Part shown: positions 1 to 34,485 of the stretch, piece by piece
How positions within the stretch are numbered: the stretch's first letter is position 1
Layout of the letters: each line of letters starts with the position of its first letter
Assembly (NCBI GenBank): GCA_017452545.1
Contig: JAFTME010000107.1
Coordinates: 828-64,827 of the forward strand
Direction of reading: 5' to 3'
Origin: Clostridia bacterium
GTDB lineage: Bacteria > Bacillota > Clostridia > Oscillospirales > CAG-272
DNA: 64,000 nt
Notes under the pieces: generated by a model
The model's input: only the letters and a program-made list of their open reading frames with translations
The model's database searches: none
Told to the model about the DNA's origin: nothing
Translations under genes and position numbers: made by a program

Positions 1-448
1 TCCAACCGTCATCCAGGTCCCACTTGTCAAAGGAGTAGTCAACCAGGATCTCATCCTTATCGGAGACACCGGAAGAGGTCAGCTCGAGCTGGATGCCCTT
101 GCCGCTCAGCTTGGAAGCCTCAGAAATGTAGAAATCGAAGCACAGGTGAGTCATCTCGGATGCATCGATGGGGCTGAACTTCAGCTGACGCAGCCAAGCG
201 CCAACGCCCAAAGTACCCTTATGGGTCTCAACCATGGAAGCCTCACCCTCGGTCTTATCCTCGGTATCGAAGGTCAGGGAAATCAAAGTAGCACCACCGG
301 CAATACCCCAGCCACCGCGAACATCACAAGTATCGATGTAAGCCACGGGATGCGTAGGAGCCGCAGGCTTCTTTGCTGCAAAGGAAACTACGGTAAAGCA
401 GCTCAGCAGCATTGCAAGTGTCAAGCAAATTGCAAGAAACTTTTTCAT
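1..448 (-). CDS. secreted protein of unknown function (C-terminal part lies outside the window)
   Basis: The minus-strand frame is open from the ATG at 448-446 down to position 1, with a GGAGG Shine-Dalgarno sequence (SD) 7 nt upstream. The N-terminus MKKFLAICLTLAMLLSCFTVVSFAAKKP looks like a Sec signal peptide. It is missing from the ORF track only because there is no in-window stop. Track ORF 146..466(+) is its antisense shadow. Confidence 0.6.
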   Translation of the reverse strand, partial: MKKFLAICLTLAMLLSCFTVVSFAAKKPAAPTHPVAYIDTCDVRGGWGIAGGATLISLTFDTEDKTEGEASMVETHKGTLGVGAWLRQLKFSPIDASEMTHLCFDFYISEASKLSGKGIQLELTSSGVSDKDEILVDYSFDKWDLDDGW

Positions 449-607: not shown

Positions 608-819
608 CAGTTGTGAACAAAATTTTTACGATTTTTTTAACAAACTGTTTTGAAGTTGTGGACTGCGCCGTTTTCGTCATGGCTATGCTATGCCATCGTT
701 TCGCGGCGGTGGTGGGAGGAGCAAGTCCTCCCCTACGGGTCTGTAAATCTTTCCGTTTGCCACTCCCCACGGGAGAGGTGGCGGCGCAGCCGTCGGAGAG
801 GGTTCCCTCTTGTCAAAGA

Positions 820-28018: not shown

Positions 28019-30433
28019 TCAAATCTTCTTCAGCTTCGCATACGTCGCCATCAGCTTTTTGGTTCCCACGCGGTCAAAGGCGACCTCCAGCAGCGTATCC
28101 GACGCCATGCCCTTGGTAGAAAGAATGACGCCCTCGCCAAAGAACGGATGGCGAACACGGTCGCCCGCCGCAAATGTGCCACCACCTGCGACAGCACCGC
28201 CGCCTGCAGCACTCTTGCCTCCGTACAGCGGCTTTCCGACCGTGATGGGATCACCGACACCGCCGCCCACACGGCGCTGCGGATGCGGCGCAGCAGCAAA
28301 TCCGCTGTACGCGGGCTTTGCCGTGCGAGAGGAGTCCTCCTCGATCAGAGCCTCGGGAATTTCCGATACAAAGCGCGAGATGGGATTGAACGCCGTCGAT
28401 CCGTAAAGCAGGCGAGTGCGCGCGTGCAGGATCAGCAGCTCGCGCTTGGCACGGGTAATGGCAACGTAAGCAAGTCGCCGCTCCTCCTCCATCTCGGCGT
28501 TCCCCGCCGTAATGGTCTGCATACCGGGGAAAATGCCGTCCTCCATGCCGGGCAGGAACACAATGGGAAACTCCAGTCCCTTTGCCGAGTGAATGGTCAT
28601 CATGACCACGGCATCCGCGCTTTCGTCGTAACGGTCAACGTCGGCAACCAGCGCGTTTTCCTCCAAAAATCCGGTCAGCGTCGGCTCCTCGGCGTTGCGG
28701 CAATACTCGATCACGCTGGATTTGAACTCCTCCAGGTTCTCAAGTCTGTCCTTTTCCTCCTCGCCCGCATCAATCAGCATCTGACGGTAGCCTGTCTGGT
28801 CCAACACGGCGTCAACCAGTGCGGGCAGCTCCATGTCCGCCGCCTCACGTGACAGCTTGTTGATCATGTGCGCAAAATTGTACAGCGTCGCTGCCGCTCT
28901 CTGCAGCGCCACGTACTGATGCGCACACTCCATGACCTCAAACATCGAGAGCCCCTGCTCTGCCGCAATGCTCTCCACTGCCTCCAGCGTCTTGTCGCCG
29001 ATCTTGCGCCGCGGCTCGTTGATGATGCGCAGCAATCTCTCTCGGTCGTTATGATTGTTGACCAGCTGCAGATATGCCACAAGATCGCGGATCTCCTTGC
29101 GATCCGAGAAGCGAACGCCACCCAGCATACGGTACGGCACCGCACTCTTGGCAAACGCGCGCTCAATGCTGTTGGATTGTGCATTGGTGCGATACAGCAC
29201 GGCAAAATCGCGGAATTTTGCAGTTCCCTCCGCCACGCGACGGTTGACCTCGTCTACAATGTATCTCGCCTCGGCGTTTTGATCGTCCAAGCCGACCAAA
29301 CGGATCTTCTCTCCGCCGCTCTGTGCCGTCCAAAGTCGCTTGCCCTTGCGCCCCTCGTTGTGCGCAATGACCGCATTGGCAGCATCCAGAATATTTTGCG
29401 TCGAACGATAGTTCTGCTCCAGCTTAATAACTCGCGCATCGCTGAACAGACGGTCAAACGAAAGAATATTCTCGATCGTCGCGCCGCGGAAGCGATAAAT
29501 ACTCTGATCGTCGTCACCAACGACCATCAGATTGCGATAACCGCCCGAGAGCAGCGTGGTCAGCGCGAGCTGCGCCGCATTGGTGTCCTGGAACTCATCC
29601 ACACATACGTAGCGGAAGCGACGCTGATATTGCTGCAGTACCTCCGGCTGCTCGCGCAGTAAACGAACCGTCTGCATGATAATGTCATCAAAATCCATCG
29701 CGCCCGAGGCAAGCAGCTGCTTCTGATATTCCTCGTAAACGCGAGCGATCTGCTTGAGTCGGTAGTCTACCCCCGCTTCAGTCGCGTAATCGTCCGGCGT
29801 CAACAGCTTGTCCTTGGCGTGGCTGATCGCGCTCATCACACTTTTGATGGGAAATGCCTTCTCATCCACGTTGCACTTTTTCATGGCAGCGGCAATCGCC
29901 TTTTTGCTGTCATCCATATCGTAGATGGAAAACTCCTTGGGATAGCCGAGAAGCGTACCGTGCACGCGCAGAATGCGCATACAAATGGAGTGGAAGGTGC
30001 CGGCCCAGATGTCGTTTGCCACGCTCTCCTCCTCAAAGGAGGCACGCAAGCGGCTCTTGATCTCGCCCGCCGCCTTGTTGGTAAAGGTAATGGCAAGCAT
30101 CTGCCACGGCGGACAGGGGTTGCTGATAAATTCGGGCAGAATATCCTCGATCTCCTCGCAGGACAGCGCCAGCGCCCGCTCATAGGTAGCAATCTGCTCC
30201 TCGGTGATCCCGTAGGGCACGTAAGTGGACTCATAGGCGTTGCCGTAGCGAATAATAAACGCAATGCGCTTGACCAGCACCGTCGTCTTTCCGCTCCCCG
30301 CCCCGGCAAGGATCAAAAGCGGATGATTGACGGCAAACACCGCCCTCCGCTGCTCGGGATTGAGATTTTCGTATACCTTATCAAATAACGCGCGCTTGGC
30401 ACGTAAATACCGTTCACTTAGTTGTTCAGTCAT
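28019..30433 (-). CDS. pcrA: ATP-dependent DNA helicase PcrA/UvrD
   Basis: 804 aa. Superfamily-1 helicase motifs are present (AGAGSGKT, DEFQDTN, VGDDDQSIY), and the C-terminal region ends FAAGDRVRHPFFGEG. Confidence 0.93.
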   Translation of the reverse strand: MTEQLSERYLRAKRALFDKVYENLNPEQRRAVFAVNHPLLILAGAGSGKTTVLVKRIAFIIRYGNAYESTYVPYGITEEQIATYERALALSCEEIEDILPEFISNPCPPWQMLAITFTNKAAGEIKSRLRASFEEESVANDIWAGTFHSICMRILRVHGTLLGYPKEFSIYDMDDSKKAIAAAMKKCNVDEKAFPIKSVMSAISHAKDKLLTPDDYATEAGVDYRLKQIARVYEEYQKQLLASGAMDFDDIIMQTVRLLREQPEVLQQYQRRFRYVCVDEFQDTNAAQLALTTLLSGGYRNLMVVGDDDQSIYRFRGATIENILSFDRLFSDARVIKLEQNYRSTQNILDAANAVIAHNEGRKGKRLWTAQSGGEKIRLVGLDDQNAEARYIVDEVNRRVAEGTAKFRDFAVLYRTNAQSNSIERAFAKSAVPYRMLGGVRFSDRKEIRDLVAYLQLVNNHNDRERLLRIINEPRRKIGDKTLEAVESIAAEQGLSMFEVMECAHQYVALQRAAATLYNFAHMINKLSREAADMELPALVDAVLDQTGYRQMLIDAGEEEKDRLENLEEFKSSVIEYCRNAEEPTLTGFLEENALVADVDRYDESADAVVMMTIHSAKGLEFPIVFLPGMEDGIFPGMQTITAGNAEMEEERRLAYVAITRAKRELLILHARTRLLYGSTAFNPISRFVSEIPEALIEEDSSRTAKPAYSGFAAAPHPQRRVGGGVGDPITVGKPLYGGKSAAGGGAVAGGGTFAAGDRVRHPFFGEGVILSTKGMASDTLLEVAFDRVGTKKLMATYAKLKKI

Positions 30434-30484: not shown

Positions 30485-30513
30485 ATTGTATCATAAATAC
30501 ACCGGAAAGTCAA
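30485..30513 (-). promoter_or_regulatory. sigma-A promoter of pcrA
   Basis: On the minus strand: TTGACT, 17-nt spacer, TACAAT. Confidence 0.55.
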
Positions 30514-30532: not shown

Positions 30533-30560
30533 TGGGATGCTGCGGTAAGACTTGAACCTG
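30533..30560 (-). other. degenerate copy of a tRNA 3' end (T-arm/acceptor-like), possible att remnant
   Basis: The minus-strand sequence CAGGTTCAAGTCTTACCGCAGCATCCCA aligns with the tRNA-Leu 3' end TGGGTTCAAGTCCCACCACCGGCACCA. The two share an exact 10-mer, GGTTCAAGTC, and are in the same orientation. Confidence 0.4.
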
Positions 30561-30662
30561 CTCGGCTTCACCTTGCTGCAAGTTTGCCTGCCGCGTGATA
30601 TGTTCTGCAATATTTAAAGATCGTACAGCGGCAGGTGGGTTCGAGTTAACCACTCTCGATGC

Positions 30663-30702
30663 AAAAAAGAACCGCTTGGGCATACCCAAGCGGTTCTTTT
30701 TT
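30663..30702 (-). terminator. strong bidirectional terminator closing the islet operon
   Basis: AAAAAAGAACCGCTTGGG-CATA-CCCAAGCGGTTCTTTTTT. Confidence 0.85.
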
Positions 30703-30760
30703 GCGAAAGACTACCTAAACGGAGCAGAATCGAGGTAAAAAAGCCTAAAAGTACACCAGG

Positions 30761-31099
30761 TTAAAGTTGTTTATATAGCAAGGAGATTGTCGACTTAAAA
30801 TACTGTTCTTGGAAATGTGTTAATTCCGCAATCTCTTCCTGCGTAAAAGTCATACCATCCGGTGCAACTACCCATTTATGTTCTATATCATTCTCACGAT
30901 TGATAATGGCTATTATTCTTCCGGTAAACTCAGAAACAGGCTCATTCACGCCTAAAATATAAGCGTCCTCTTCTTCGCCATCTGCCGCCATTGTTCCATT
31001 AATATAGCCATAGTTTATAGGATAATGTATATCCGGATGCTCAGGATGAAAACTTCCAAGTGGTCTGTCAACGGTTACCGTAACAATTGGGCCAATCAT
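30761..31099 (-). CDS. truncated family-I inorganic pyrophosphatase homologue (about 112 aa)
   Basis: YPINYGYINGTMAADGEEEDAYIL parallels the E. coli Ppa segment [23 protein letters not shown]. The first ~40 residues of a full PPase are absent. The ATG overlaps the upstream stop as ATGA. Low-GC codon usage. Confidence 0.65.
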   Translation of the reverse strand: MIGPIVTVTVDRPLGSFHPEHPDIHYPINYGYINGTMAADGEEEDAYILGVNEPVSEFTGRIIAIINRENDIEHKWVVAPDGMTFTQEEIAELTHFQEQYFKSTISLLYKQL

Positions 31100-31443
31100 T
31101 TCCCATTCTCCTTTGCGGTGTTGATAGAGGCAATGAGAATTCGACGGATCGTTCCGCATTGATTATAGAGATCAACAGTTGTTTCTCTGTTCAGAATGTC
31201 GGATTTCACAAACAGCTCCAACCAGTATTCAGTCTCGTAACACTCTTTTAAGGCAATTTGCAATTTGGCAATAAAGTCAGGCTTTCCGTGTGCATAATTT
31301 GCCTCATGGATATTTGCACCAATTGAGGTGGCAGAACGCTCCAATTGATTGACAAGAGAATAATGGCCTTTGATCGTTTCACAGAGTTTAATTATCTTAA
31401 TAGCGAAACCCATAGATAATTCAACGAGCTTATTTTCTTTCAT
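31096..31443 (-). CDS. four-helix-bundle protein (23S rRNA intervening-sequence protein / Avd-like family)
   Basis: Start at MKENKLVE, preceded by GAGGTGAGG. The hallmark QLERSATSIGANIHEA....DF..KL.IALKE..ETEYWL is present. Confidence 0.8.
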   Translation of the reverse strand: MKENKLVELSMGFAIKIIKLCETIKGHYSLVNQLERSATSIGANIHEANYAHGKPDFIAKLQIALKECYETEYWLELFVKSDILNRETTVDLYNQCGTIRRILIASINTAKENGK

Positions 31444-31462
31444 TATCCTCACCTCTGCAAAT

Positions 31463-31491
31463 ATTATAGCATATTTAATGAAATATTGCTA
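31463..31491 (-). promoter_or_regulatory. candidate extended -10 promoter for the four-helix-bundle gene
   Basis: On the minus strand: TGCTATAAT, with a poor -35 (TAGCAA). Confidence 0.35.
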
Positions 31492-31649
31492 CGCAATATG
31501 AAATAATCCTTTGGATTATGAAATATTTTGCCTTAGCGGCAAAATGTGAAATAAAATAAATCCCTCATACGCCGCTGCGTATTTCATAGCGTCAGCTATT
31601 TCATAACGCGAAGCGTTATTTCACAAATCCCGCAAGGGATTTATTTCAT
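31478..31649. repeat. mirror-symmetric array of seven mini-hairpins
   Basis: Hairpins at 31483-31499, 31503-31519, 31525-31545, 31567-31582, 31586-31599, 31603-31619 and 31625-31642. Stems are 5-8 bp and all differ in sequence, but six begin ATA/ATT and end TAT/AAT (the seventh runs AAATCCC/GGGATTT). Spacers are GAA(AT) in the left arm and TTC(AC) in the right arm. Confidence 0.85.
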
Positions 31650-31651
31650 TG

Positions 31652-31692
31652 AAAAGAACCCACACTTGTCGTAGACAAATGCGGGTTCTTTT
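31652..31692 (-). terminator. terminator directly after tRNA-Leu
   Basis: AAAAGAACCC / GGGTTCTTTT outer stem with an inner TTGTC/GACAA stem. A U-run follows on the minus strand. Confidence 0.8.
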
Positions 31693-31693
31693 C

Positions 31694-31779
31694 TGGTGCC
31701 GGTGGTGGGACTTGAACCCACACGATGTTGCCATCAGAGGATTTTGAGTCCACCTCGTCTGCCATTCCGACACACCGGC
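31694..31779 (-). tRNA. tRNA-Leu (anticodon CAA), class II with a long variable arm, CCA encoded
   Basis: Manual fold. Acceptor GCCGGTG/CACCGGC, anticodon loop CTCAAAA, T-arm GTGGG-TTCAAGT-CCCAC, 86 nt. Confidence 0.88.
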
Positions 31780-31788
31780 GCGAGATGT

Positions 31789-31817
31789 ATTATAGCACAC
31801 TTCCTTTACAAAATCAA
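31789..31817 (-). promoter_or_regulatory. sigma-A promoter of tRNA-Leu
   Basis: On the minus strand: TTGATT, 17-nt spacer, TATAAT, ending about 9 nt before the mature 5' end. Confidence 0.6.
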
Positions 31818-31908: not shown

Positions 31909-34485
31909 TTACTTTTGATATTTACCCGTAATACGAGCGACCTCGAACAGGATCCAGCTTGCCTGCTCCTGGTTACCGGAGTCGGCAAGACGGCCGTCGG
32001 CTACCCAAGTCTCGGGATAGATCTCGTTGGAGCGCTTATCAACGAACTCCAGAACGTCGTTGAGTCGCTCGGTATTGCCCGTCTTCCACAGATAATACAG
32101 CTCCCAACCAAGACCCTTACCAATGACGTGGTTGCCGTGATAAGTTGCTTGATCCTTGTCGTTTACGTCAACAACAACCGCCAGCATATCGATACCGGAA
32201 TACTTTTGCGTTCCGATCTTCAGATATGCTTCATAGGTGTTCGCCATGATCTCTTCGTTTACTGCGTACCAATCCGAAGCAATGGGAGCAAGGTTGACAA
32301 AGGAGAAGCCGCGATAGACCGCGCCGCCCTCGTCCAGAGCGATCAGCTCAGTATAAATCGGCTTGCCCTCAAACTCGGAAACAAGCTCCGTGTGCACTGC
32401 CTCAGCAATATCGTCCGCTGCTTTAGCAAACTCGTCGGCGACTGCATTGTCTCCGTACATCTTTGCAACCTGACTCATCTTATGCAGTGCCTCGGAGGCA
32501 AAGCAGTTGGTGATCAGGTCGTAGCCATCCCAATATCTGCCCTTACGGGAGTGCTCATAGTTTGGATTATGTACCAGCCCGTTTTCATGGATATAACCGT
32601 TGTCAAGGAAATAACGGGTATATTCGATCATCAGATCGTAAACGGAATCCAGGAACTCACCGTACTCCTCTCCGCTCTCCAGCGCAAACATAGCGAATGC
32701 GTTCATCCACATATAGTTGCCGTCGACCTGGATCTTGGTCGAAATGGGAGTTACGTTGGAAATACCGGCACGGTAAGAAAGTACAAGCTCCTGCGCTTTA
32801 CCGTCCACGTGGCAGGCCTGTGCTCTGTCAATGCCTGCCTTTCCGAACCACTGAACCGACTCGGCACGCGAAGCACCGATTTGAATCGAATATGCTTCGT
32901 CGGCATTCAGCTTGCTCATCGGCAGCGCGAACTCAAAGTTGTAAGCAGCCGCCTTGCTGCCAAGCGTAGATACGGGGCGCGTAACCTCGCTGATAAGCGC
33001 ATCGCCCTTGTAAAGCGAAACCGTAAAGGTATCCTCTGCGGCAGCCGTGCCAACAGCCGCGAGATACAGCTGTGCGGAGGTTACAAGCTTGGAATTCAGA
33101 GTAGAGGAAAGCGTCTGCTTTGCCTCAACACCGCCGCCAACCTTAACGCCGACAGCCGTGCGGGTACCGGAGTACTCGGGATATACACGCAGCGCATAGG
33201 TCTCACCCAAAGGTGCCTTGTCACCGTCTGCGCTCTTGTATGCAACGGTTGCAGCCGCAGCCGTAGCCCATACAACGTCGCCCTTCTCCGCATAGACGGA
33301 AAGGCCATAGGTTTTCCCCTCCGTAACCTTAACGGAGCCGAAATCAAAGGCAACCTTGCCGCCGCTCGTCTTTACCGTAGCCGTTTTCACTTCCTTACCG
33401 TCGGCATCCACCAGCGCACCGTACAGATTGGTCTCCACGCTGCAGGTCGCGTCGATCTCGATGGTATCGATCACATCACCCTTTGCAACAAAGGTCTGGG
33501 TAACCGCGTTGCCCTTGCCGACCAAGGAGTTATCCGTGCGGATGCGGTAGCCGATCACCTGACCGTTGGAAACCCAACCGCCAAAAGCAGGAACGTCGAA
33601 GTTGTAGCCGGAACCACCGCTGGTCTTACCAAAGGAAATGATGTTGCCCGTTGCATTTTCTGCCCAAACGCTGAGAACGTACTTTTCGCCCGCCTCAACG
33701 TCTACCGGTTCGTCAAATTTAAAGGTGTACCAGTCCTTGCCCGAGCCGAGGTCTGCAATATCGCGGGAAATTTTACCGATAGAGTCATCTCCGGGCTCGG
33801 TACCGAGGCTGACAACGATCTCGCCCTCCTTACCGGCAAGCTCCAGATATACAGAGATCTCGCTGACATTATCAAACGGAAGCATGATCTTCTGTGCACA
33901 GCCATTGGTCGGCATATTGATCTTGTAAAGTGCAATGGAGGTATCCTCGGAGGAAACGGACGTGCCGACCTTTCCAAGCTCGGGTGCCTCATAGGACATA
34001 TCCTTGTCGATATAATCCCAAACGCTGTTTGCCGTCAACTCACTCATAATATGATGCGCAAACGGAGCGTTCGTCGCCTTGTGATAGGACGCCATAAAAC
34101 GAAGAATGCTCATTGCCTCGTCCATATCGCCCTCAGCGATGTGCGCCATGACCTGAATAGACGCGTCACGAACAAACATACCCTGATATGCGCCTGTCAG
34201 AGACGTCTGCGCATAGCCGTTCTCGTGCAAGCGATCCAGCATCGTCTTGTAGGTAGCATCATACAGCTTTTGTCCTTTTTCAGACAACTTTACATACTGA
34301 TCCATATCGTCCTCCTTGCCTCCATCGGGATTTTCAGGCTGGTCGGGAGTTTGCTCACCGTCCTGCGACTGATCGGGGGTGGGATCCGGCTCCTCGTCCG
34401 GCTTTTGGCACGCGGTCAACAGGGTGCCAAGAACAAGCACCAATGCCAGCAGCATCGCCAGCGCTTTGATTACCGTCGGCTTCAT
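31909..34485 (-). CDS. large lipoprotein, probable glycoside-hydrolase-like alpha-helical barrel interrupted by three tandem beta-sandwich-like modules
   Basis: 858 aa. Lipobox LLTAC, then a Pro/Asp/Glu/Gln-rich linker. Repeated motif FKFDEPVDVEAGEKYVLSVWAE / FDFGSVKVTEGKTYGLSVYAE / FEFALPMSKLNADEAYSIQIGA. Confidence 0.75.
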   Translation of the reverse strand: MKPTVIKALAMLLALVLVLGTLLTACQKPDEEPDPTPDQSQDGEQTPDQPENPDGGKEDDMDQYVKLSEKGQKLYDATYKTMLDRLHENGYAQTSLTGAYQGMFVRDASIQVMAHIAEGDMDEAMSILRFMASYHKATNAPFAHHIMSELTANSVWDYIDKDMSYEAPELGKVGTSVSSEDTSIALYKINMPTNGCAQKIMLPFDNVSEISVYLELAGKEGEIVVSLGTEPGDDSIGKISRDIADLGSGKDWYTFKFDEPVDVEAGEKYVLSVWAENATGNIISFGKTSGGSGYNFDVPAFGGWVSNGQVIGYRIRTDNSLVGKGNAVTQTFVAKGDVIDTIEIDATCSVETNLYGALVDADGKEVKTATVKTSGGKVAFDFGSVKVTEGKTYGLSVYAEKGDVVWATAAAATVAYKSADGDKAPLGETYALRVYPEYSGTRTAVGVKVGGGVEAKQTLSSTLNSKLVTSAQLYLAAVGTAAAEDTFTVSLYKGDALISEVTRPVSTLGSKAAAYNFEFALPMSKLNADEAYSIQIGASRAESVQWFGKAGIDRAQACHVDGKAQELVLSYRAGISNVTPISTKIQVDGNYMWMNAFAMFALESGEEYGEFLDSVYDLMIEYTRYFLDNGYIHENGLVHNPNYEHSRKGRYWDGYDLITNCFASEALHKMSQVAKMYGDNAVADEFAKAADDIAEAVHTELVSEFEGKPIYTELIALDEGGAVYRGFSFVNLAPIASDWYAVNEEIMANTYEAYLKIGTQKYSGIDMLAVVVDVNDKDQATYHGNHVIGKGLGWELYYLWKTGNTERLNDVLEFVDKRSNEIYPETWVADGRLADSGNQEQASWILFEVARITGKYQK

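Follow-up and report, generated by a model that had tools for sequence, protein, structure and literature searches.

The window analysed here, a 64,000-nucleotide stretch of a Clostridia bacterium contig (C94 of the assembly G000), holds a 992-bp cassette of low GC content between its tRNA-Leu(CAA) gene and pcrA. The cassette begins precisely at the CCA end of the tRNA. Read along the tRNA, it consists of a terminator, inverted arrays of short hairpins that match the Gut-1 motif, a predicted promoter, a gene for a four-helix-bundle protein, a cargo gene with a short pyrophosphatase-like product and a tail of about 50 nt (Table 1). The two genes are the only open reading frames (ORFs) in the segment. 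A search with PF00589 detected no tyrosine integrase on the contig and two tyrosine recombinases in the whole assembly (C70, C72). A preliminary description of this DNA had also seen a two-gene cargo with a hairpin array and no remaining integrase, and both genes and the array are present.

Table 1. Positions of the features discussed. Positions refer to the window unless another contig is named.
Feature	Position	Strand	Basis or remark
tRNA promoter-like site: TTGATT, 17 nt, TATAAT, TG before it	31789..31817	-	promoter scan
tRNA-Leu(CAA), docking site	31694..31779	-	ARAGORN; Rfam tRNA, 52 bits
Whole cassette, 992 bp, GC 0.386	30702..31693	-	homology breakpoints, conserved tail, composition
Terminator 1, 20-nt-arm hairpin	31651..31693	-	inverted repeat, 90% complementary; folding
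Array arm 1, four mini-hairpins, TGAAAT(A) linkers	31568..31650	-	Rfam, folding, covariation
Arm 1 mini-hairpins	31625-31642, 31604-31618, 31587-31598, 31568-31581	-	
Array centre (TGAGGGATTTATTTTATTTCACA)	31545..31567	-	
Array arm 2, three mini-hairpins, inverted linker TATTTCA	31484..31544	-	Rfam, folding
Arm 2 mini-hairpins	31526-31544, 31504-31518, 31484-31498	-	
Predicted extended -10 TGCTATAAT (31463-31471) and ribosome-binding site GAGGTGAGG before ATG at 31443	31441..31471	-	read from sequence
Four-helix-bundle gene, 115 aa, 23S-rRNA-intervening-sequence-protein / Avd-like family	31096..31443	-	profiles, PDB
Cargo gene, short pyrophosphatase-like, 112 aa from MIGPIV...	30761..31099	-	PF00719
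Conserved tail (TACTTTT...TTTACC...CCGTTTAGGTAGTCTTTCGCA), non-coding	30702..30753	-	alignment with tails of other copies
Terminator 2, bidirectional	30660..30701	.	-35.6 kcal/mol, z -9.8
Repeat B, diverged copy, ends GCCGAGCAGGTTCAA (30552-30566), outside cassette	30552..30659	-	exact 15-mer, GC 0.50
3' part of claimed tRNA-like end (GTCTTACCGCAGCATCCCA)	30533..30551	-	length suits T-stem and acceptor strand; matches no tRNA
pcrA promoter-like site: TTGACT, 17 nt, TACAAT	30485..30513	-	promoter scan
pcrA	28019-30433	-	ORF and profile match
Region of repeat B, second copy	G000:C83 (L071) 126-373		
Repeat B, third copy	G000:C125 (L064) 640-810		
Array, ATATCACT-type linkers	G000:C125 412-585		before second four-helix-bundle gene
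Solo array, GAAATC linkers	G000:C101 4736-4909		37 nt behind tRNA-Trp; then canonical promoter and NUDIX gene
Solo array	G000:C70 33839-33916		about 930 bp past tRNA-Ser(GCT), just before T-box leader

The composition of the segment sets it apart from its surroundings. In 200-nt windows, GC content falls to 0.33-0.41 across about 30700-31700, against 0.55-0.60 in pcrA and about 0.53 in the gene for an 858-aa protein on the opposite side. For the block 30702-31693 as a whole it is 0.386, against 0.551 for the genome, and equally low values occur in only 0.6% of all 992-bp genome windows. The AT-rich islet abutting tRNA-Leu that the preliminary description had reported is thus borne out. So is its start at the tRNA 3' end (31694), where the homology of independent copies also starts. 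Its proposed extent to 30533 is not, since low GC stops at about 30702 and the stretch 30533-30701 has a GC content of 0.45-0.58.

Evidence for insertion comes from relatives. We located the N-terminal half of PcrA in 30 relatives and compared the upstream regions of eleven loci of the same genus. In eight genomes of the genus, namely the window genome and seven congeners, pcrA has a tRNA-Leu(CAA) gene upstream of it that points the same way. The distance from the tRNA 3' end to the start of pcrA is about 50 bp in G004, about 130 bp in G011, about 285 bp in G005, 1260 bp in the window and 2.0-3.7 kb in G002, G007, G009 and G012. In the three shortest, the CCA is followed at once by a terminator and then by the pcrA promoter, so that the search for empty sites proposed in the preliminary description finds three among the seven congeners. 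The longer congener gaps are filled with other material, which marks the tRNA-Leu(CAA)-pcrA interval as a hotspot. The low-GC segment is a genuine insertion at the tRNA-Leu 3' end, with the foreign composition and the presence and absence among relatives that are expected of an island.

The insertion would seem to disturb the locus little, in that the tRNA gains a new terminator, the cassette supplies a promoter of its own and, at this site, the cassette ends at what was probably the old tRNA terminator. Terminator 1 (-31 kcal/mol, z -10), whose helix shows compensatory changes among copies, is predicted to now end transcription of the tRNA, albeit with an interrupted U-tract (UUCUUUUC). Terminator 2 is probably the former terminator of the tRNA itself, now closing the cassette operon, because empty congener sites have such a terminator directly after the CCA. 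A simple scan for terminators and promoters missed both of these long-stem terminators and the extended -10; the terminators were found by folding and by an inverted-repeat search. Canonical -35/-10 promoters stand at the equivalent position in other subfamilies of the cassette.

Copies of the cassette, its ends and its docking sites

A DNA search of 40 relatives found the cassette head and the four-helix-bundle gene in G031, a member of a different family, at 87-96% identity. The G031 copies are spread over four contigs, of which C69, C87 and C157 start within the element, and heads stand directly after the CCA of tRNA-Leu(GAG), tRNA-Leu(CAA) and tRNA-Gly(CCC). Homology between the window and G031 starts exactly behind the CCA, with GAAAAGAAC. 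A single scan of metagenome contigs with a 24-mer of the cassette head returned a further 14 contigs. The head stands behind a tRNA end in ten of these: Gly(CCC) three times, Arg(ACG) twice, Glu(TTC), Ser(GCT) and Ser(GGA) once each, and two tRNAs cut by contig ends. The remaining four show, respectively, the head behind tRNA-Glu(CTC) and one extra T, behind a truncated tRNA-Ser end, in a different context and, at L092, behind the tail of another cassette (TCTTTCGCA joined to GAAAAGAACCC), which indicates that cassettes can stack. The window junction, GGCACCA followed by GAAAAGAACCC, recurs in three G031 copies and 11 metagenome contigs, and the copies outside this genome, in G031 and the metagenome contigs, are 82-96% identical. 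CCA is encoded by all 39 tRNA genes of the assembly, so that its presence is uninformative as to whether it arrives with the cassette.

The other end was placed in the same way. Conserved tails could be aligned from L087, L091, L096, L092, G014 and G031:C134, copies that bear other cargo. Past TCTTTCGCA, the tails diverge into unrelated, site-specific sequence, usually a local terminator (8 copies), and none of the eight right ends examined has a copy of a tRNA 3' end after the tail. In the window, too, there is no direct tRNA 3' repeat (attL/attR) at the distal boundary; the cassette ends at 30702 with the conserved tail. Judged by these comparisons, the ends are CCA joined to GAAAAG... and ...TCTTTCGCA, and the cassette is the segment 30702-31693, with an uncertainty of a few bases inside an A-run. 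The expected cassette-free junction would accordingly be ...GGCACCA joined to AAAAAGAACCGC, and a circular or tandem form would read TCTTTCGCA joined to GAAAAG.

The order of parts, with terminator, mirror array, promoter and four-helix-bundle gene in succession, is the same in G031, L085, L087, L091, L092 and L096, and recurs in another subfamily in G047. In this analysis, the family is delimited by a head at the CCA, this order of parts, variable cargo and a tail ending in TCTTTCGCA, all of which are found in the window. Both reading frames are open and identity to other copies is high, which argues that the cassette is complete and not decayed.

A second site tells a similar story. We joined the flanks of the G031 cassette at tRNA-Leu(GAG) and searched for them in the genus of G031. 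In G044 the site is empty, with the CCA followed by a terminator and a gene for an 81-aa protein, and in G041 and G051 it holds other inserts. G031 carries the subfamily of this window. G047 carries a different subfamily, with GTGATGC-type linkers and its own four-helix-bundle gene, which runs directly into the resident gene. The presence of independent subfamilies behind the same CCA is strong evidence for site-directed docking.

We therefore consider it likely that the segment is an intact member of a compact, integrase-less and apparently mobile cassette family, inserted between the CCA of the tRNA and its probable old terminator. The preliminary description had proposed a decayed or minimal element at the tRNA 3' end. 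The insertion stands, given the empty sites; the decayed, att-bounded island does not, given a complete cassette and tails with no tRNA copy after them.

Copies of such high identity raise the question of an artefact, either a mis-assembly induced by repeats or contamination of the metagenome-assembled genome (MAG). The family does disturb assemblies, as seen in the G031 contigs that break inside cassettes, and identity reaches 96% with copies in another family. Here, however, the cassette is internal to a 65-kb contig, and both of its flanks are orthologous to the genus: the word CTCTTGAyTTT...GTGCTATAmTA of the tRNA promoter region is also present in the congener G005, and PcrA shares about 80% amino acid identity with its congeners. 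Other relatives of the cassette in the assembly are distant (72-78% over 110-145 nt), making collapse of repeats unlikely, and estimated contamination is 2%. We regard an artefact as very improbable.

Several observations weigh against the interpretation as an intact, mobile cassette with a fixed docking site. All compared genomes are MAGs, one per species, and movement of the cassette is deduced from genome comparison, with a mobilising enzyme that is putative. The cassette promoter is a consensus-level prediction that the simple scan did not call. At tRNA-Leu(GAG), G031 is without the native terminator that is seen in the empty G044, such that insertion between CCA and terminator is no universal rule. 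About half of the top Gut-1 loci lie elsewhere than behind a tRNA, and an unverified human fecal record labelled 'Bacteriophage sp.' (L137, MT835590.1, 2990-3560) has a cassette behind a protein gene, with a head and four-helix-bundle gene that are 68% identical and with no tRNA within 3 kb; together these imply that docking is not strictly tRNA-specific. Finally, the resident tRNA diverges over its whole length from those of the seven congeners, and a larger segment may have been swapped by recombination. The exact cassette head was not found in IMG/VR, and a plasmid search gave only chance-like matches to Priestia pyrophosphatase genes.

The tRNA-Leu(CAA) gene, present in a single copy in the 2.2-Mb assembly according to ARAGORN, may itself have been replaced. 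It differs from the sequence common to the seven congeners at 19 positions and by one indel. Largely compensatory, these differences affect the D, variable and T arms and the anticodon stem; the acceptor stem and the anticodon loop match the congener type exactly. The tRNA of G005 is one compensatory T-stem pair off the shared congener sequence. The resident tRNA is nearer to those of other genera (91% for G039, 89% for G019), and G031, of another family, carries the congener type. Upstream of the tRNA, the 858-aa gene (31909-34485) encodes a lipoprotein with weak matches to DUF4082 and to a rhamnosidase six-hairpin domain. None of the eleven congener loci has a counterpart of it within 8 kb of the tRNA, and thus the other flank of the tRNA is variable as well.

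The distal tRNA-like sequence and neighboring repeats

The preliminary description had placed the far boundary of the islet at a degenerate copy of the tRNA 3' end at 30533-30560 (CAGGTTCAAGTCTTACCGCAGCATCCCA on the minus strand), and the 10-mer GGTTCAAGTC that it reported as common to this sequence and tRNA-Leu is indeed there, in the same orientation and 1.15 kb off. Such a copy could be the attR of a decayed integrase-type island, for which 30561-31693 would be the whole element, 30533-30560 the displaced tRNA 3' end, and the integrase would have been lost. The similarity is marginal. The best local alignment with the tRNA matches 13 of 15 positions (GGTTCAAGTCnnACC) with a score of 11, a score that 7.5% of random 1260-nt genome segments attain, as do 1.5% of shuffled versions of the region. 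Of the 10 occurrences of the 10-mer in the genome, 6 fall in tRNA T-arms and 4 elsewhere; about 4 would be expected by chance. Beyond the T-loop word, the 19 nt GTCTTACCGCAGCATCCCA match none of the tRNA 3' ends of the genome (best global score, 5/18). The search with tRNA models that the preliminary description had suggested likewise found nothing tRNA-like at 30533-30660 in Rfam, even at E <= 10. The sequence is also 150 nt away from the cassette, from which a strong terminator separates it; low GC and cassette homology both stop at 30702, the eight other tails are followed by no tRNA repeat, and the cassette is complete, with two open frames and 87-96% identity to copies elsewhere.

The T-loop word forms the end of a diverged copy of another repeat, which we refer to as repeat B. 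An exact 15-mer of this repeat is present at only three sites, on the window contig and on C125 and C83 of the same assembly, and the window copy is 87% identical to that of C125 over 38 nt. Across GTDB genomes, the repeat B pattern GCNAGGNNNNGCCGAGCAGGTTCAA gave only three chance-level matches in unrelated phyla, and by this search the repeat is private to this lineage. On C83, repeat B stands behind tRNA-Leu(CAG). After it, the final 18 nt of the tRNA and the first 19 nt of its terminator recur as a perfect 37-nt copy, giving direct repeats of 37 nt, 211 nt apart, with B between them. The start of B on C83 is an inverted copy of the tRNA 3' end and lengthens the terminator palindrome. On C125, the sequence after B agrees with the 3' end of tRNA-His in 14 of 17 positions, as read by eye from the alignment output.

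Other duplications occur in the congeners. Behind tRNA-Leu(CAA), G012 (L056, 3560-4162), G007:C48 (L057), G002 (L060) and G009 (L058) carry tandem units of about 200 nt, in which a terminator and some 130 nt of structured sequence are combined with 16 nt that repeat the tRNA 3' end exactly. Each genome has between one and three such units; a decayed one is present in G009, and a truncated start is seen in G011. The units match no Rfam family and were found nowhere else in those congener genomes, being restricted to the tRNA-Leu(CAA)-pcrA locus. In view of these tandem units and of the duplicate on C83, tRNA 3'-end duplications are a genuine feature of this locus and lineage. The exact 16-nt copies, including the decayed unit of G009, and the T-loop word in a repeat that elsewhere precedes a perfect tRNA-end duplicate all lend some weight to a decayed island. 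Set against the features of the cassette and its tails, we find that explanation improbable. The stretch 30533-30701, outside the cassette, contains what was probably the old terminator and a worn copy of the unrelated repeat B, whose end carries a T-loop-like word, and 30533-30566 could be the worn footprint of an older event distinct from the low-GC cassette.

Two further possible insertions were seen in this context. At the same locus in G007:C48, a terminator and a short hairpin array of the GAAATC type come after the third and last tRNA 3' copy. The array, some 520-700 nt downstream of tRNA-Leu(CAA) and under the Rfam threshold, has the look of a separate insertion into this hotspot. The sequence TGCAAAATTAGCGAAGAAATTATCTAACACACGGTAGGGGCGAAC... 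breaks the loop of a terminator hairpin at two unrelated tRNA loci, in G012 (L056, just below the tandem units) and in G000:C83 1-125, and resembles the end of a further element that settles in the loops of terminators.

The hairpin array, the encoded proteins and a possible mechanism

Gut-1 was described as a motif known only from human-gut metagenomes, with no known organism and no known role (Weinberg et al., 2010; PMC2864571), and this was the only description that we found in the literature searched, one that gave no organism, context or function. Arm 1 of the array matches the Gut-1 model RF01706 at 31576-31651 on the minus strand with 65.4 bits (E 2.4e-12), above the gathering score of 50. 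Arm 2 mirrors arm 1, giving a match on the plus strand (31470-31529) of 47.2 bits, under the gathering score. An alignment of 13 heads, covering the terminator and four hairpins, has 96.4% of its cells paired and covariation at 8 pairs, a result that none of 500 shuffles reached. Compensatory changes maintain the array hairpins, and where heads have diverged, as in L096, the stems are wholly different and the linkers unchanged; between array subfamilies, the linker words vary. The centre word at 31554-31564 (AAATAAATCCC on the plus strand) is exactly complementary to the hairpin 1 arm region at 31636-31646, and when the whole arm is folded to minimum energy, pairing over this distance supplants the local hairpins.

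The distribution of the arrays ties them both to stable-RNA genes and to the four-helix-bundle family. Of the 41 relatives compared, 19 lack any Gut-1 match, and eight contain 16-30. A tRNA or transfer-messenger RNA (tmRNA) gene ends 30-45 nt before 13 of the 30 best Gut-1 loci, a placement for which the chance expectation is about 0.1% (a rough estimate that assumes some 45 tRNA genes per 2 Mb). Gut-1 and the four-helix-bundle gene occur together in 18 genomes, Gut-1 alone in 4, the gene alone in 3 and neither in 16 (Fisher p = 3e-5, rho = 0.78). Arrays far outnumber four-helix-bundle genes, and hence many arrays are solo. In the window genome, there are arrays at four loci and three four-helix-bundle genes, with the two paired at the window locus and on C125.

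The four-helix-bundle protein gives a full-length match above the curated cut-offs of both PF05635 (E 6.6e-26, 91 bits vs a cut-off of 33.8, residues 6-107) and TIGR02436 (E 1e-28, 99.8 bits vs 24), and it matches PDB entry 2rld (E 1.6e-22). Avd-type proteins bind nucleic acid. In those parts of the literature that we saw, the family appears in connection with rRNA intervening sequences, diversity-generating retroelements and genome annotation; we found in them no paper on the function of the family outside diversity-generating retroelements and none on tRNA-linked cassettes.

The cargo gene overlaps the stop codon of the four-helix-bundle gene (ATGA) and is, from this arrangement, predicted to be translationally coupled to it. 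Its product scores 27.3 bits against PF00719 (cut-off, 23.5), a match that covers only positions 29-90 of the 153 in the profile, and its matches to pyrophosphatases in the PDB are weak (E 1e-3). A copy 92% identical is present at G014:C43. In other cassettes, the second gene encodes a lipoprotein (G031), a His_Phos_1 protein (L085), a 125-aa protein of no known family (L087 and L091), a DUF2691-like protein (L092) or MazG (L096). Cargo genes are exchangeable between cassette copies. Small phosphohydrolases recur with the arrays, as a pyrophosphatase-like protein in the window, MazG at L096 and a histidine phosphatase at L085. The NUDIX gene behind the solo array at tRNA-Trp (G000:C101, L065 676-1176) is a further small phosphohydrolase. 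A shared theme of nucleotide metabolism or signalling is possible, within a small sample.

How might the array act? One explanation is that it is transcribed, by read-through from the tRNA or from an internal promoter, as a small RNA (sRNA) or leader that regulates the four-helix-bundle operon or is bound by its protein, and that the link to tRNAs reflects co-transcription or 3' processing. Compensatory retention of the hairpins with fixed linkers, a Gut-1 match above the gathering threshold, the interrupted U-tract of terminator 1, which makes some read-through conceivable, promoter-like hexamers that the promoter scan called within the array, and the affinity of Avd-type proteins for nucleic acid would all fit such an RNA. 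However, the array stands between a terminator of -31 kcal/mol and the operon promoter, its inverted pair, with one Gut-1-oriented arm on each strand, suits a dyad at the level of DNA, and covariation of the hairpins fits folded single-stranded DNA as well as RNA. We think of a transcribed array as a serious possibility, if on balance an unlikely one.

For the cassette as a mobile element, we tentatively propose three steps, for each of which we would put the chances at, or slightly short of, even. The array would be a recognition module, its position between terminator and promoter making folded or cruciform DNA the likelier form than a stable sRNA. The four-helix-bundle protein may bind the array, for which its relation to Avd and its fitting phyletic pattern make it the best candidate. 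An enzyme supplied in trans could perform the insertion, reading the point at which a stable-RNA 3' end meets its terminator. As mobiliser, a Y1/HUH transposase (PF01797) was considered and found unsupported: the family is absent from G000, G007, G014, G027 and G036, the last four of which hold 16-29 arrays and belong to the eight array-richest genomes, and its association with arrays is weak (Fisher p = 0.10). The lack of PF01797 in this genome and in four array-rich ones leaves an IS200- or RAYT-type enzyme (RAYT, REP-associated tyrosine transposase; REP, repetitive extragenic palindrome) unsupported.

Carried further, these steps would add up to an undescribed system of gene capture and mobility, in which the four-helix-bundle protein recognises its own mirror array as folded DNA and directs insertion, free of a dedicated integrase or transposase, behind stable-RNA 3' ends, with cassettes that stack and swap cargo. 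We hold this larger scheme to be doubtful. If it were true, the targets would be tRNA and tmRNA genes and, by extension, 23S rRNA intervening sequences with the same gene; Gut-1 would be a DNA recognition module and not an sRNA, the intervening-sequence protein family would be a mobility or maintenance factor, and several of the swapped cargo genes would be nucleotide or pyrophosphate hydrolases.

Whatever the mechanism, Gut-1 has been an orphan since 2010, and this locus ties it to the four-helix-bundle protein family. The locus also yields exact element ends, an empty congener site and a second site with empty, filled and differently filled alleles, and both orphans thereby become testable. 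Annotators should note that low GC next to a tRNA end need not mark a decayed integrase island, and that multicopy cassettes of this kind break assemblies among the related genomes examined.

Comparison with known systems

We found no description of such a cassette family in the literature searched, and the cassette falls outside the definitions of tRNA islands, integron cassettes and REP arrays, including bacterial interspersed mosaic elements (BIME). Like tRNA-integrated islands and prophages, it lies at the 3' end of a tRNA gene, is foreign in composition and is present or absent among relatives. Unlike them, it has no integrase, the tails examined have no duplicated tRNA segment, and the junction falls after the last base (CCA) and not within the T or anticodon arm; moreover, the cassette is only 1 kb long and occurs in multiple copies behind many different tRNAs.

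The PF05635 family connects the cassette with 23S rRNA intervening sequences and with Avd, and with the former it shares the nature of a small insertion with a gene tied to a stable-RNA gene. In contrast to 23S rRNA intervening sequences, it sits behind tRNA or tmRNA genes and not inside a 23S rRNA helix, and in contrast to Avd retroelements it has no reverse transcriptase or template repeat nearby. It differs from both in bringing a promoter, a terminator, a hairpin array and a cargo gene of its own.

Integron cassettes are likewise small units with one exchangeable gene and a conserved, structured non-coding module, and head-to-tail stacking as at L092 is also reminiscent of them. The cassette described here has its own predicted promoter and a constant first gene, carries its structured module at the head and lands at a tRNA end. 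No attI platform was seen, and the integron recombinase has no counterpart on the contig in the search for tyrosine recombinases, which used no IntI-specific models.

A further parallel is with REP/BIME sequences, their RAYT partners and elements derived from IS200/IS605, which also form short clusters of alternating palindromes in intergenic DNA, reach a high and patchy copy number and insert beside a fixed short sequence with no target duplication. In the arrays, however, the stems vary and the linkers are conserved, the reverse of REPs, the cassette carries genes, and the Y1/HUH genes of RAYT and IS200 systems are missing from this genome and from half of the eight that are richest in arrays.

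The array also resembles Gut-1, in that one arm exceeds the gathering score and three to four short hairpins alternate with (G)UGAAAU linkers in both. Compared with Gut-1 as it was described, the array has an organismal context and forms an inverted pair. It stands directly behind tRNA or tmRNA genes, with a terminator on one side and a promoter on the other, forms the head of a cassette with a four-helix-bundle gene and may not be an RNA.

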